A stretch of 40,172 nt of DNA from a virus. The translations under genes and the position numbers were made by a program. Numbering within the stretch: position 1 is the stretch's first letter; each line of letters starts with the position of its first letter. Below the pieces are notes generated by a model, which saw only the letters and a list, made by a program, of their open reading frames with translations, was not told where the DNA came from and did no database searches. Positions 8,468-29,747 of the stretch are shown one piece after another. The stretch is from the UHGV virus genome UHGV-0207031; one strand, 5' to 3'.

Positions 8468-8553
8468 CTAACATCATTCCAAAACAACCCGCCAAGTGCG
8501 GGTTTCTTTTTGCCTGGCTTCCAGGTTCGATTTCCAAACCGGAGATGAAACCC

Positions 8554-8754
8554 ATGCAACACCAATTACAGCCCGATTCACTGGTTGATCTGAAATTCAT
8601 CATGGCAGATACTGGTTTCGGAAAGACCTTCATCTATGACCGCATCAAAGAAGGCACCCTGCCAAAAAGCAAACTCATCCACGGCCGCGCCAGATGGCTA
8701 TATAGTGAACACTGCGAGTTCAAACAAAAGCTCTTAAGCCGCCTCGATGGGTAA
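8554..8754 (+). CDS. xis: AlpA-family excisionase / DNA-binding protein
   Basis: 66 aa from the internal ATG with GGAGA RBS. KTFIYDRIKEGTLPKSKLIHGRARWLYSE resembles the AlpA/Xis HTH. Directly upstream of a P4-family integrase. Confidence 0.7.
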   Translation: MQHQLQPDSLVDLKFIMADTGFGKTFIYDRIKEGTLPKSKLIHGRARWLYSEHCEFKQKLLSRLDG

Positions 8755-9002
8755 AATTGCGGGTAAAATAAAATCCACTTCTGAAAATTCCCTTTCTATA
8801 CAATCCCCTGACATGCCAATTCGATGTATGCAGGGGACACCATTCTATAGTTCGCCACTCTCCGCAGTAGTTCGCAAAATCCCTTGCACAGCAGGCTCTC
8901 AATAAAATACCAGTTCGCCATAGTTCGCAATAGAACGTTGACAGCCGCATACTTCGGCGGGTAAAAAACGAGTAAATGATTTTACCCACCGGAATTTTAC
9001 CC
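8749..9002 (+). promoter_or_regulatory. probable attP: core TGCAGGGGACACCA (8829-8842) with upstream TTCGAT; AGTTCGC[C/A]A repeats at 8849, 8869, 8912, 8922; GGGTAAAA at 8749, 8761, 8959 and inverted TTTTACCC at 8980, 8995 abutting int ATG
   Basis: The core matches the 3' end (T-loop remnant, acceptor, ACCA) of E. coli tRNA-Arg(CCU) argW as remembered. It lies about 160 bp upstream of, and co-oriented with, int (canonical P4-family arrangement). The repeat arrays flank it with 10/20-bp phasing. Confidence 0.55.
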
Positions 9003-10160
9003 ATGCTCACCATCAAACAGATCGACGCAGCAAAGCCGAAAGATAAACCGTACCGGCTGCTCGACAGCAACGGGCTGTACCTTTATGTGCCGGTTACCGG
9101 AAAGAAAGTCTGGCAACTGCGTTACAAGCTCAATGGTAAAGAGAAGGTTTTGACGGTAGGCAAATACCCGCTCATGTCATTGCAGGAAGCCAGAGACAAA
9201 GCTTGGCTTGCCAAAAAGGATGTGTCTGTCGGTGTCGATCCGGTAAAGGCCAAAAAACTGTCAGTCAAAGACAACTCGTTCGGCTCTATATACCAGGAAT
9301 GGTACGAGCACAAAAAACAGGTATGGTCAGAGGTATACAGCACCGAACTGTCACGTATGTTCCAGGATGACATTCTGCCGTTGATTGGCGTGATGGAGAT
9401 TCACGAGATAGAACCAATGCAGATACTGGAGGTGATACGTAGGTTCGAAGAACGTGGGGCAATGGAGCGGGCCAATAAGGCGCGTAGGCGGTGCGGAGAA
9501 GTATTCAGGTACGCGATAGTTACCGGGAGAGCGAAGTATAACCCGGCTCCTGACCTTGCTGATGCCATGAAGGGATACAGGAAGAAGAACTATCCTTTCC
9601 TTCCTGCTGACCAGATACCTGCCTTCAACAAAGCACTATCTGGCTTCTCTGGAAGTATCGTATCAAAGATTGCGACACAGGTTTTGCAGTACACGGTACT
9701 GAGGACAAAAGAACTCCGGTCAATGCAATGGTCGAACGTCGACTTTGAAACCAGGACGATTACGATCGCCGAAGATGTGATGAAGGGGCGTCGCCCTCAC
9801 CTTGTACCAATGTCAGATCAGGTCGTCTCTCTGCTTGAAATGCTGAAGCCTATAACGCAGCCGATATCAAGCTTCGTTTTCGCCGGGCGCAATGACAAAA
9901 CAAAGCCGATCAGTGAAAACGCAGTTCTACTGGTTATTCGCCAGATTGGCTATGAAGGATTGGCAAGTGGCCACGGTTTCCGTCACCAGTTCAGCACCAT
10001 AATGAACGAGCATGAATGGCCCGCAGATGCCATTGAGAAGCAACTTGCGCACGCTAACAGCGGCTCCATTCGTGGGATATACAATCATGCTCAGTACATG
10101 GATAAGCGTCGGGAGATGATGCAGTGGTGGGCAGACTGGCTTGATGAGAAGGCATCATAG
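9003..10160 (+). CDS. int: P4/CP4-57-family tyrosine integrase (DUF4102 N-terminal arm-binding domain plus catalytic domain)
   Basis: MLTIKQIDAAKPKDKPYRLLDSNGLYLYV is a canonical N-terminus. C-terminal H..R..H..Y catalytic region (GHGFRHQF...IYNHAQY). Confidence 0.9.
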   Translation: MLTIKQIDAAKPKDKPYRLLDSNGLYLYVPVTGKKVWQLRYKLNGKEKVLTVGKYPLMSLQEARDKAWLAKKDVSVGVDPVKAKKLSVKDNSFGSIYQEWYEHKKQVWSEVYSTELSRMFQDDILPLIGVMEIHEIEPMQILEVIRRFEERGAMERANKARRRCGEVFRYAIVTGRAKYNPAPDLADAMKGYRKKNYPFLPADQIPAFNKALSGFSGSIVSKIATQVLQYTVLRTKELRSMQWSNVDFETRTITIAEDVMKGRRPHLVPMSDQVVSLLEMLKPITQPISSFVFAGRNDKTKPISENAVLLVIRQIGYEGLASGHGFRHQFSTIMNEHEWPADAIEKQLAHANSGSIRGIYNHAQYMDKRREMMQWWADWLDEKAS

Positions 10161-10168
10161 GAAAGCAA

Positions 10169-10202
10169 CACAAAGCCTTGCAAACCGATGCAAAGCTTTG
10201 TG
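10169..10202. repeat. 34-bp nested palindrome (CACAAAGC-cTTGCAaaccgaTGCAAa-GCTTTGTG) between convergent int and tailspike; likely bidirectional terminator
   Basis: 8-bp outer and 5-bp inner inverted repeats. T5 run 8 nt downstream on the plus strand. Confidence 0.45.
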
Positions 10203-10241
10203 TGTCCCGTTTTTGTCTCATCTTCGTTAAGAATCTTTTAA

Positions 10242-12275
10242 CTAGATTATTGCTCTTCCAGTTTCAGACCCAATCCCACCATTATTGACTCTGATTTCAA
10301 TACTGCTGCCTGGAGTAATAACAGCTGGCACTGCACCTGCAAGTTTAAGATTGGAACTGTGTATTATAGTAAAGTTTGAAGACCCTCCATTTGTTAATGT
10401 TACATTTTTCATGCTAGCAGAGTTAACAAAACCTACTACATCAAAATGTGAACTTACTGAGACATTAATAATATCCCATTGAGAAACATCTATTGTTGAT
10501 GATGCTGATGTTATATTTAAAGTCCTCATCACTGTATCTACAACCAGACCATTTCCTGCGGTTACCTTGTCAGTTACATTGTTACTGTAGATGTTCGTGT
10601 CAGTGATTGGGAGGGTATTATCTCCATTCCTTACAGTATTATCATAAACCTCAATTGCAATTGTATCCTGGTTTATTACAACCCCCTGTGGAGTTGGTTG
10701 CGGATCTGAACCGTAATAGTATGTGGCTGAGCTAGGATCCTGAATATTGCAGCTATGTATTTTAACTCTTCCATTTTTAGCCAGAACAGTTATCCCCTCA
10801 CCACCAGGCATGATGATTGTCTCATCGTGAATTGAGCCTTGAGTGAAGTAATCACCAGATAATGGAGAGCCATCAATAACTATCTGAGGAACCGGTATTC
10901 TTTGAGACCCAAAAGCGTATAAATTGTCATGGATGGTAAATCTTGTGCATTTATTAAGGTAAATGCTTGTTCCTCCTGATTCAAAAAACTTATTATCATG
11001 AATATTAATCCATCCACCACCGTTAACAATTCTTATATGAGAGTTCTTTTCATTACTCTTAAGGACACCTCCTGGGAAAAATGGGATGTTATCAGAAACT
11101 GTAAGTCCATCAATTGTGTCAATATATATGTGATCAACGGTTGCATGCCCCTCATTTCCGCTAACAATCCAGTCAGCCATAGGGTACTGCATCCCAGGAG
11201 ACGGCTCGCTAAAGATAAATCTATCTACAGACTCACCATCCTCTGCCCCCTTTCCATAGTGACATCCAGATACAATCCATCTATTAACCATCTGCCCCCA
11301 TGCAGTTGCTGATGAGCCACCTACAGTAGTGCTAGGGATGATATGAATAAAGTTTTTATATCCTCGAACATCTTTAATATCAGATATGTTTCCCATTCTG
11401 GCATATGCAAGCTCAATAGCTGAAGTTATAGCTCTATCTGTTATAAAACTAACACCAGATATTTTAGTATTCATATAAATATCTGAGCTTGTAAGGAATG
11501 TGTCCCGACACACCCTTATGGTTCCATCTATAACACCACTTCCGCTAACTGTTACATTTTGTTTTTTTATCCAAATTCTTGTGAATTTTGTTGTTGTCCC
11601 ATACGGGAAAGTAATTTCTGCACCTTCGCCAAGTTCGTCTACCATCTTTTGTAGGTTGACGTCATTTAATGCAATATCAGAAAGATTATTGCTCCAGTTC
11701 CTTACATCTCCAATGTCATAACCATTAAGATACCCTACTGCTGACCAACTTGAATCAGGTGATGAGTTTGGAGGCACTGATACTGGCAAAGTTCCGTTAT
11801 ATCTATACCAATAACCATCATCATAATTTAAAAGCACCTGTTTTCTTTCTGTGATTGTAGCCCCGGTGTCAAATGTCTGCCCAAACATTCTGTAATAAAC
11901 TTCATATCTAAATGCTGACTTTGCATAAATTGAGAATTGGTCAGGGTCATACTTCAACACGTTGGCGATATAGTCGACTTGCGATCCATAGGCATCGTAG
12001 ATAGCCATGCTATGGCCCTGAACGGTGACAATTTTCACCAACTGTCCGTTGTATACGATTTTGCCGGCTGCGTTGATGATTAACGGCTGAGTAATCTGAA
12101 CGTGAGAGCCGTCCTCATTTTCAATGTATACGGGTATCTGATTGGCAGGATTAACCGGATCAGTATCAATCTGACCAATATAAATCCGACCATTAGCTAC
12201 TGCGCGAAATGTACGTGAATCAGTGAAGATAGGGCGAGGGTTAGACACAACCACGTTTGCAGTGATATCTGACAT
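10242..12275 (-). CDS. tailspike protein: P22-gp9-like N-terminal head-binding domain plus divergent beta-helix receptor-binding/glycanase domain
   Basis: N-terminus ([16 protein letters not shown]...[47 protein letters not shown]) matches P22 tailspike almost residue-for-residue as remembered. The remainder is AT-rich with a beta-helix-like repetitive pattern. Confidence 0.9.
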
Positions 12276-12410: not shown

Positions 12411-12665
12411 ATGTATAGCAAATACGATGAGGCGCAGTTCCACTTGAGGCTTACGCACGAACTACACGCGAAGATTAAGCAACGCGCGAAGATGAATAAC
12501 AGATCCATCAATGCAGAGATTGTGGCAACGATGGAGGAATCATTGTCAAAGCCATCACCGGTTAGCGGATACCGTGATGATGCAGAACGCGAGGCTGATT
12601 CAGTCTCAAGGGAGATACAGAAATTGGTTTTCGACAAACTGGCTGAGCACTACAGAAAGAAATAA
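12411..12665 (+). CDS. mnt: Mnt-like ribbon-helix-helix (Arc/MetJ family) repressor
   Basis: 84 aa. FHLRLTHELHAKIKQRAKMNNRSINAEIVATMEESLSKPSPVSGYRDDAERE...KLVFDKLAEHYRKK parallels P22 Mnt (..ALSKPSPVTGYRNDAERLADE..MVFDTLKDLYKK) as remembered. Confidence 0.8.
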   Translation: MYSKYDEAQFHLRLTHELHAKIKQRAKMNNRSINAEIVATMEESLSKPSPVSGYRDDAEREADSVSREIQKLVFDKLAEHYRKK

Positions 12666-12695: not shown

Positions 12696-13094
12696 ATGCT
12701 CTATTCTCTCCATCATTCGACTGTACAAATTTTTGGAATCAAGGCCGTGAAAAAATTAATCGCTGCAATTTTCTTACTATCCTCTTCTGCCGCATATGCC
12801 CAATGCATAGGTAGTAACGCAATGTCCACATGCTACGACAACAACGGAAACACATATCAAGTTAGCAGAATGGGCGGTATGACTACGGTTAATGGAAGAA
12901 ACTCGAATACCGGTTCATCATGGTCTCAAACATCTAACACGATTGGAAATTCCACCTACACAAATGGGCGTGCATCCAATGGTCAAACGTGGAATGAAAC
13001 GCAGACAAACATGGGCGGGACTAGAATGATTTATGGCCGTAACTCACAAGGTCAATCATATAGTCATACATGCAATCAATTCGGCTGTAACTAA
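12696..13094 (+). CDS. secreted small protein with cleavable signal peptide and three Asn/Gly/Ser/Thr-rich GR-x-S repeats flanked by Cys pairs
   Basis: KKLIAAIFLLSSSAAYA/Q signal peptide (alternative GTG start at about 12747). Mature part has C-x9-C at the N-terminus, C-x4-C at the C-terminus, and repeats NGRNSNTGSSWSQTSNT / NGRASNGQTWNETQTN / YGRNSQGQSYSHT. Confidence 0.7.
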   Translation: MLYSLHHSTVQIFGIKAVKKLIAAIFLLSSSAAYAQCIGSNAMSTCYDNNGNTYQVSRMGGMTTVNGRNSNTGSSWSQTSNTIGNSTYTNGRASNGQTWNETQTNMGGTRMIYGRNSQGQSYSHTCNQFGCN

Positions 13095-29591: not shown

Positions 29592-29666
29592 TGGTGCCGG
29601 GCAAAGGAATCGAACCTCTGACGCGCAGCTTACAAGGCTGCCGTTCTGCCACTGAACTAGACCGGC
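29592..29666 (-). tRNA. tRNA-Thr (anticodon UGU)
   Basis: Cloverleaf GCCGGTCTAGTTCAGTGGCAGAACGGCAGCCTTGTAAGCTGCGCGTCAGAGGTTCGATTCCTTTGCCCGGCACCA. Anticodon loop cuUGUaa. One acceptor mismatch (6:67). Encoded CCA. Confidence 0.7.
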
Positions 29667-29671
29667 GAATT

Positions 29672-29747
29672 TGGTGGAACCCGATGGAATCGAACCATCT
29701 CCTAATGCTCTTCAGGCATCCGCGCGAACCATCTACGCCAGAGTTCC
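29672..29747 (-). tRNA. tRNA, anticodon GAA (Phe) by manual fold; unusual G37
   Basis: GGAACTCTGGCGTAGATGGTTCGCGCGGATGCCTGAAGAGCATTAGGAGATGGTTCGATTCCATCGGGTTCCACCA. T-arm GATGG-TTCGATT-CCATC. Anticodon loop cuGAAga. Confidence 0.5.

Follow-up and report, generated by a model that had tools for sequence, protein, structure and literature searches.

Positions 8749-9002 of the viral genome UHGV-0207031, analysed here over its whole stretch of 40,172 bp (the window), lie between a small gene, xis, predicted to encode an excisionase or recombination directionality factor (RDF), and int, which encodes a P4-type tyrosine integrase (Table 1). Int displays 83% identity to IntS of Escherichia coli K-12 over 383 aa without gaps, together with the Pfam domains Arm-DNA-bind_3, Phage_int_M and Phage_integrase. 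All 66 aa of Xis align to K-12 TorI, at 85% identity, and Xis also matches the "Tor inhibition protein" of PDB entry 1Z4H (E = 2.8e-36); a Pfam search with Xis returned no family, and the protein was identified through TorI and 1Z4H. KplE1 (CPS-53), a cryptic K-12 prophage seated in the tRNA gene argW, has IntS as its integrase and TorI as its excisionase (PMC2951348), and Int and Xis appear to be orthologs of these two proteins. The interval between the two genes contains a copy of the argW 3' end and two families of short repeats, and we consider it highly probable that it constitutes the phage attachment site (attP) of a recombination module of the KplE1/HK620/Sf6 type, carried here by a P22-like phage and operating as proposed below.

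Table 1. Features of the recombination module and its surroundings in the window.
Feature	Position	Strand	Basis or remark
Terminator-like hairpin with T run, upstream of xis	8486-8512	+	Pattern scan; putative function
argW T-arm-like box CAGGTTCGATTTC	8522-8534	+	Conserved in relatives; 19 nt before xis ATG
xis, predicted excisionase/RDF, TorI homolog, 66 aa	8554-8754	+	Homology
Putative P-arm Int arm-type sites, two direct GGGTAAAA	8749-8756 and 8761-8768	+	First copy overlaps xis stop codon
TCCCCTG, inverted copy of core CAGGGGA (8831-8837)	8804-8810		Inverted-repeat scan; part of P-arm CAAnCCCCTG box
attP core TGCAGGGGACACCAT, equal to argW 3' end	8829-8843	+	Sequence match; lysogen attL/attR limits
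Block 1 of putative excisionase sites (I1, I2)	8848-8877	+	Layout kept across 20 loci
I1 equivalent TAGTTCGCCA	8848-8857	+	Alignment to KplE1 attL
I2 equivalent TAGTTCGCAA	8868-8877	+	Alignment to KplE1 attL; starts 20 bp past I1
Block 2 of putative excisionase sites (I3, I4, I5)	8911-8940	+	10-bp register
I3 equivalent CAGTTCGCCA	8911-8920	+	Alignment to KplE1 attL
I4 equivalent TAGTTCGCAA	8921-8930	+	Alignment to KplE1 attL
I5 equivalent TAGAACGTTG, degenerate	8931-8940	+	Alignment to KplE1 attL; overlaps -35
Predicted int promoter: -35 TTGACA, 18-nt spacer, -10 TAAAAA	8938-8943 and 8962-8967	+	KplE1 homology
Putative P'1, direct GGGTAAAA over int -10	8959-8966	+	Motif scan; KplE1 alignment
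Degenerate P' arm-type copy GAGTAAAT	8970-8977		
Putative inverted P' sites TTTTACCC	8980-8987 and 8995-9002		Second touches int ATG (9003)
int, P4-type tyrosine integrase, IntS homolog, 385 aa	9003-10160	+	Homology; Pfam
Bidirectional terminator hairpin between int and tailspike gene	10169-10220		Folds on both strands
P22-type tailspike gene, 677 aa, convergent on int	10242-12275	-	

The attP core and prophage junctions at argW

The 14-nt sequence TGCAGGGGACACCA occurs once in the window (8829-8842) and equals the last 14 nt of K-12 argW, whose 3' end in NC_000913 reads ...GGTTCGATTCCTGCAGGGGACACCA. Further to the left, TTCGAT (8820-8825) matches the T-loop of the tRNA gene too, with a 3-nt difference (gta/tcc) between this motif and the core. 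When compared to the published KplE1 core CTGCAGGGGACACCAT, the window core matches in 15/16 nt. Since the core is identical to the argW 3' end, integration would rebuild an intact tRNA. The core end and the conserved int ATG at 9003 are separated by 160 bp; we refer to the side of the core facing int as the P' arm, and to the side facing xis as the P arm.

Sequence features, homology, lysogen junctions and the comparative footprint were all read directly. An exact-protein look-up of the window Int retrieved contigs with a 100%-identical Int beside tRNA-Arg(CCT), three of which (L063, L064 and L066) read across the junction, one of them starting inside the tRNA and thus incomplete upstream. 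In these lysogens, the host tRNA-Arg(CCU) (...GGTTCGATTCC) gives way to the window P' arm exactly at TGCAGGGGACACCA, and the gene order in the two contigs with a full upstream flank is Toluene_X-MlaA-yfdC-tRNA-Arg(CCT)-int-tailspike-gp16. Their P' arm differs from that of the window by one base over the 160 bp past the core, and they display 99.1% identity to the window over 8820-10234, with no match elsewhere. The match is uninterrupted over this range; therefore, the phage is split at the proposed core, and a palindrome located between int and the tailspike gene (10169-10202) is internal to the prophage. Non-integrated phage contigs with an intact attP were also found, with 100% (L065/L067) and 99.7% (L068) identity to the window.

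Searching E. coli genomes with positions 8700-9010 yielded prophage matches beginning at 8820/8829, over an annotated tRNA-Arg, with yfdC directly upstream of the argW junction and the integrase downstream. In E. coli L73 and M37H, a prophage of about 45 kb, approximately 90% related in this module, lies between yfdC-argW and dsdC, with a match at its left and right ends (attL and attR), and EC21Z-063 gave the same pair of hits. On the attR side, as read in L73, the xis-side match stops at 8846, and dsdC comes next, about 45 kb from attL. The order in the window is xis, attP and int, and that in lysogens is argW-int at one end and xis-core-dsdC at the other. An ARAGORN scan of 24 genome loci (Int 60-96% identical) recovered tRNA-Arg(CCT) in 22, its end lying about 160 bp before int in 21 of them, and homology to the window begins at 8820 in all genomic loci aligning that far upstream; the genomes of phages HK620 and Sf6 align to the window without a break from 8485 to 10152. 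Among 80 loci from IMG/VR, 46 begin at int because prophage calls were trimmed there, 28 are of attL type and 6 contain an intact attP with xis upstream, and no arrangement besides these last two was found in the 34 loci with sequence upstream of int.

All these results agree with an original prediction made on this DNA, which had placed attP between xis and int, co-oriented with int and about 160 bp upstream of it, with a core reproducing the last 14 nt of argW, and had excluded an attP between int and the tailspike gene: the argW record, the coordinates, the junctions found exactly at 8829-8842 as anticipated, and the uninterrupted palindrome are in accordance with it, as are the lysogen gene orders with int and tailspike expected at one prophage end and xis at the other. 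The predicted contrast to the topology of P22 was borne out by the layout of phage L, although the non-P22 topology has long been known, being annotated in the HK620 and Sf6 records and described explicitly for Kapi1, Sf6, HK620 and KplE1 in the Kapi1 paper (PMC8787464).

The homology limits allowed us to narrow the site of exchange. The attL side of lysogens matches the window from 8820, which takes in TTCGAT, and the attR side up to 8846. In both L73 and M37H, attL reads GGGGACGCCA and attR reads GGGGACACCA followed by host sequence, indicating that the phage supplied the G and the host the A, and that both exchanges occurred left of 8839. Directly left of TGCAGG, the tRNA type has TCC and the phage type GTA; the differences on both sides confine the crossover to TGCAGGGGAC (8829-8838). 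We infer that the integrase exchanges strands within this segment, inside the 15-bp core. The divergent relative L152 (IMGVR_UViG_651703044_000001, 1323-1340), in which core identity comprises TGCAGGGGACA only, is consistent with this localization, and suggests that integration may require no more than 11 nt of core identity. The attL of the window phage is expected to read argW...GATTCC-TGCAGGGGACACCA-TTCTATAGTTCGCC, and its attR ...CGATGTA-TGCAGGGGACACCA-host; the left prophage end would then carry argW-core-P' arm-int-tailspike, and the right end xis-P arm-core.

Two further observations concern the tRNA gene itself. In the M37H and L73 lysogens (L001, 3008-3023; L003, ~2830-2850), the rebuilt argW has a phage-derived G rather than A as discriminator base (GGGGACGCCA), and attR retains the host A, which shows that the phage can rewrite the discriminator base of the tRNA. 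In L152, the core is followed by ATTATC, without CCA, and a lysogen argW would lose its encoded CCA unless the crossover took place right of it.

The surroundings of the core contain additional repeats. The P-arm motif TCCCCTG, an exact inverted copy of the core CAGGGGA located 20 bp away, is part of a CAAnCCCCTG box that is invariant in 6/6 aligned attP/attR sequences and also present in L152, and AATCCC[C/T]TG occurs as a direct repeat, one per arm (8802-8810 and 8878-8886). Both TCCCCTG and AATCCC[C/T]TG may constitute extra Int core-type or host-factor sites.

Two repeat families and the predicted int promoter

The motif AGTTCGCMA is found at 8849, 8869, 8912 and 8922, always on the plus strand, with start-to-start spacings of 20 and 10 bp. 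These are its only 4 copies in the window, where 0.84 would be expected, and this number was reached in 1/100 shuffles. A fifth, degenerate copy of the AGTTCGC type, TAGAACGTT (8932-8940), maintains the 10-bp register and was recognised only by its position with respect to KplE1 I5. The second motif, GGGTAAAA, occurs at 8749, 8761 and 8959 (+) and at 8980 and 8995 (-), its only 5 copies in the window (expected 0.82, reached in 0/100 shuffles). All 4 + 5 + 1 copies of AGTTCGCMA, of GGGTAAAA and of the core 14-mer sit within the 254 bp of 8749-9002. The P-arm pair of GGGTAAAA is kept in the KplE1 and L73 attR, in HK620 and in Erwinia and Klebsiella phages, and the HK620 record annotates this region as an attP repeat.

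For the interpretation of these repeats, we took the KplE1 site definitions from Panis et al. (2010, PLoS Genetics; PMC2951348). The five TorI sites of KplE1 contain GTTCG, GTCCG or GATCG and are arranged in 2 + 3 blocks, with 12 nt between I1 and I2, and 2 nt between I3, I4 and I5; the P' arm-type sites of IntS contain TAAA, P'1 covering the -10; and the promoter PintS, mapped by primer extension, has the hexamers TTGACA/TAaAAa, with IntS repressing intS, as does TorI by way of I4 and I5 (PMC2951348). In the window, the P' arm is collinear with KplE1 attL, and xis plus the P arm with KplE1 attR. Four exact and one degenerate AGTTCGC-type copies reproduce the 2 + 3 arrangement and its spacing, ending at the -35; TAAA-containing sites are present on both arms, placed, oriented and composed as in KplE1, with the 8959-8966 copy overlapping the -10 at 8962-8967; and the int promoter hexamers, overlapped by the I5 and P'1 equivalents, and their 18-nt spacing are the same as in PintS. 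The AGTTCGC repeats therefore correspond one for one, by position, to the TorI sites I1-I5, and the integrase arm-type motif would be GGGTAAAA/TTTTACCC only.

The pairing of each protein with its sites, the transcription start and the repression are inferred from experiments on KplE1. According to the proposed model, the N-terminal domain of Int would bind GGGTAAAA sites, two direct ones on the P arm, and one direct, one degenerate and two inverted ones on the P' arm; the TorI-like excisionase would bind the five phased (A/T)GTTCG-type sites of the P' arm, and this binding would drive excision. The int promoter, placed inside the P' arm with a predicted transcription start near 8973/8974, would be repressed by Int over its -10 and by the excisionase at its -35, so that int expression would be low, self-limited and independent of xis. 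The original prediction had counted four AGTTCGC[C/A]A copies with 10- and 20-bp phasing and five of the second motif, with inverted copies at the int start codon, all of which were recovered, and had regarded both families as arm-type repeats, which holds for GGGTAAAA but not for AGTTCGC, matching the KplE1 excisionase sites; the Int autoregulation that it suggested gains support from the collinearity with KplE1.

The start of int given in the open reading frame (ORF) list, 8976, stems from a G at 8978, the conserved start being 9003. This G, also present in L065, a contig of the same phage, gives rise to an in-frame ATG located 27 nt before the conserved start and about 2 nt past the predicted transcription start; position 8978 is A in the closest lysogens (L063, L064 and L066), in Citrobacter and in K-12.

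In order to compare the module site by site, attL or attP sequences from 20 sources were aligned. The layout is constant across the 20 loci: the 2 + 3 sites lead up to the -35, one arm site covers the -10 and another, inverted, touches the ATG. The int -35 displays an invariant TTGAC (TTGACA in 16/20). The excisionase-site motif shifts in concert within a module, from GTTCG to GTAAAC in Tatumella punctata, GAGAAC/GCGAAC in Izhakiella, GTTACC in Kluyvera and TCCAT in T. saanichensis, and GGGTAAAA/TTTTACCC is replaced by GGGCATA/TATGCCC in four divergent genome loci and in L152, an intact divergent attP with GGGCATA on both arms and a divergent Xis. Both motif families vary independently, as T. 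saanichensis retains GGGTAAAA yet has TCCAT, and the GGGCATA modules include four different versions of the excisionase-site motif. Compared with the window, the Int proteins of T. punctata and L152 are 58-60% identical in the N-terminal domain and 77-82% in the rest of the protein, and all GGGCATA-class integrases share one distinct N-terminal sequence; the arm motif thus appears to track the N-terminal arm-binding domain of Int and not its catalytic part. Such independent, concerted switching is the pattern that two DNA-binding proteins with co-evolving sites would produce. Considered as a whole, the argW-targeting family (L007-L030 and L152) comprises at least 5 excisionase-site versions and two arm-site versions with a fixed core and -35, potentially a natural series of orthogonal specificities on one constant core, and the comparative table of motif switching may guide the design of orthogonal Int/Xis pairs.

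Three other explanations were weighed against this assignment. Both repeat families could be integrase arm-type sites, with AGTTCGC as a second class recognized by the Int N-terminal domain; the P'-arm location and helical phasing of these repeats are possible for arm sites, and their pairing with the excisionase of this phage derives from sequence comparison. We regard this as very unlikely, since in KplE1 mutation of I4 and I5 (GTTCG motif), with which the window repeats align, abolishes TorI repression of intS, and the P' sites of IntS are the TAAA-containing repeats (PMC2951348), and since the two motifs evolve separately across relatives, with only the switch between GGGTAAAA and GGGCATA following the Int N-terminal domain. 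A decayed, non-functional module, for example one impaired by having A at position 8828 or by the additional ATG at 8976, would fit a core matching 15/16 nt of that of KplE1 and a G at 8978 without counterpart in the closest lysogens. It is nonetheless extremely improbable, as the int and xis reading frames are intact over their full length, every site is conserved, several assemblies hold prophages at argW whose Int is identical and whose P' arm departs from that of the window in a single base, E. coli L73-type prophages with the same GATGTA/TGCAGG left junction are likewise integrated, and the shorter core identity of L152 may suffice.

The remaining explanation places a P22-like attP downstream of int, in or close to the 10169-10202 palindrome, leaving the argW-like 14-mer as a relic. 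It draws on the 96% identity of 10171-10220 to a sequence located just beside attP in P22 and phage L; however, the annotation of phage L presents this element as a terminator, separate from attP and from the tRNA-like fragment, the element is likewise annotated as a terminator in epsilon34, and the palindrome folds as a hairpin on both strands (z = -3.5 and -2.6). In lysogens with an identical Int, the window sequence is unbroken through the palindrome and breaks at 8820-8829, and the integrase is of IntS type and not of P22 type. The junctions refute this explanation, which we consider scarcely credible, and the palindrome was accordingly rejected as an att site.

Several points weigh against the attP assignment that we favor. 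The attribution of proteins to sites in this phage rests on KplE1 homology and comparative patterns, and position 8828 is A where the 16-nt KplE1 core has C. The attR sequences examined derive from relatives approximately 90% and 79% identical; an exact-protein look-up of Xis for the attR of this very phage returned only non-integrated phage contigs. A generic sigma-70 scan gives no call at the int promoter, which it misses because the -10 TAAAAA has no T at position 6. The matches to the integration host factor (IHF) consensus WATCAANNNNTTR in a scan of the arms all have 2 mismatches, and therefore no IHF site is claimed. IHF is a component of the KplE1 in vitro excision reactions, and a 2007 paper in J Biol Chem reportedly maps the KplE1 IHF sites.

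Relation to known systems and neighboring features

The KplE1 module shares with that of the window the argW target, the core and the gene order (argW-core-P' arm-int, and RDF gene-P arm-core), with a DNA identity of about 73-79%; KplE1 is a 10-kb defective remnant, whereas the attP of the window is intact and belongs to a complete P22-like genome of 40 kb. Furthermore, the window keeps more T-loop similarity (TTCGAT) left of the core than KplE1, and its RDF sites are more uniform, with four exact AGTTCGC copies against GTTCG/GTCCG/GATCG. HK620 (AF335538), Sf6 (AF547987), Kapi1 and CUS-3 represent the same phage type, with xis-attP-int, a terminator and a convergent tailspike gene. In Kapi1, Sf6, HK620 and KplE1, attP is located between int and xis, and consequently the two genes reach opposite prophage ends (PMC8787464). 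Between hkaC (= torI) and int, at positions homologous to those of the window, the HK620 record marks an "attP core", "attP" repeats on its flanks and an int promoter, and the Sf6 record has corresponding annotations. The attP regions of the HK620/Sf6 type display about 78% DNA identity to the window, their host being probably different, and Sf6 harbors oac between int and the tailspike gene, where the window has nothing. Satellite phage P4 also encodes a P4-type integrase with Arm-DNA-bind_3 and has its attP upstream of int, overlapping the int promoter; its tRNA target is leuX, differing from argW. The int gene of P4 is repressed by Int and by the RDF, and has been likened to that of KplE1, with the P4 RDF, Vis, being proposed to act on int mRNA and not on DNA at the -35 (PMC2951348).

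P22 and phage L belong to the same phage group but are organized as xis-int-attP (with a tRNA-like fragment)-terminator-gtrABC-tailspike, with int and xis together in the prophage, and both their integrase family and their tRNA target differ from those of the window; only the 50-bp terminator downstream of int is shared. This terminator marks a mosaic joint at which another integration module has been attached. The int module plus terminator is 99.1% shared with the identical-Int prophages, which bear a different tailspike of 737 aa; the int module is clearly bounded by mosaic joints at either end, with 10171-10234 on the tailspike side.

Among 50,697 phage records, a near-identity search with the xis-int region gave a best match of 79% (Erwinia phage Midgardsormr38) and no close phage. 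The carrier thus appears to be an undescribed P22-like phage with a diverged copy (~78% DNA identity) of the E. coli/Shigella module. The host flank of the identical-Int lysogens is closer to Citrobacter sp. wls619 (87% identity) than to E. coli (about 80%), and the Int of a wls619 prophage is 96% identical to that of the window, indicating that the host is probably Citrobacter-like. Only the carrier is new, the recombination module itself being already characterised in KplE1, HK620, Sf6 and Kapi1; that both Int and the excisionase repress int was established for KplE1 in 2010 (PMC2951348). The understanding of site-specific recombination is therefore unchanged, as architecture, target and double negative int control were established between 2001 and 2012 (KplE1, HK620, Sf6). 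For this phage, the analysis establishes where it integrates, where its prophage ends lie and how int is likely controlled, which aids annotation and host assignment, and its prophages can be recognized by argW-int at the left end and xis-core at the right end.

A further element conserved in the family is a 13-nt box, AGGTTCGATTCCC, resembling the argW T-arm and fixed 18-19 nt before the xis start codon in nearly all relatives. Its consensus, CAGGTTCGATT(C/T)CC, covers the window, HK620, Sf6, K-12, E. coli L73, L089 and L152 (L005, 1463-1478; L152, ~997-1010); in HK620, Sf6 and K-12, the box reproduces 16 nt of the argW T-arm exactly, and two copies of it are present in the Erwinia phage (L149). 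In HK620, it lies inside an annotated cII-dependent "phage integration" promoter, whose TTGC boxes and -10 are not conserved in the window or L152, the TTGC..TTGC cII box upstream of xis being only half conserved in the window. As the box contains GTTCG, a role as excisionase operator was considered and rejected, since L152 now has GT(A/T)ACC as excisionase motif and an unchanged box; a folded T-arm mimic was also rejected by eye, the flanking would-be stem bases not being conserved. Nevertheless, the box is kept in L152 although the excisionase, the excisionase sites and the Int arm sites have all switched specificity, and could for this reason be a functional cis-element. That it is an undescribed element tied to the unchanging argW specificity, either a site for the Int core-binding domain or a module joint, is a speculative and rather unlikely proposal; if true, Int bound at the box could control xis, mirroring the control of int by the excisionase, or else the box could serve as a conserved joint for module exchange. 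The hairpin with a T run preceding the box has equivalents before xis in HK620, Sf6, E. coli L73 and IMG/VR relatives.

Other observations concern neighboring sequences. A 52-aa ORF extends across the P arm and the core (8747-8905, +), with annotated counterparts in HK620 (hkaB), Sf6 (gene 17) and the Erwinia phage (ORF36), but it is probably no gene, since the binding sites account for its sequence. In the E. coli L73 prophage (L003, 1248-2408), a gene for a TnpB/InsQ RNA-guided endonuclease, absent from the window, is located directly upstream of xis. Between the tailspike and ejection-protein genes, the window contains two ORFs (12411-12665 and 12696-13094, +), one small and Arc/Mnt-like by eye, the other of 132 aa, whose product has a hydrophobic segment at the N-terminus and a body rich in Asn, Gly, Ser and Thr, and may be a secreted or exclusion protein. 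Finally, adjacent genes for tRNA-Thr(TGT) and tRNA-Phe(GAA) are found at 29592-29747 (-), on the late-gene strand, and Kapi1 is likewise reported to carry two tRNAs just before the lysis module (PMC8787464).

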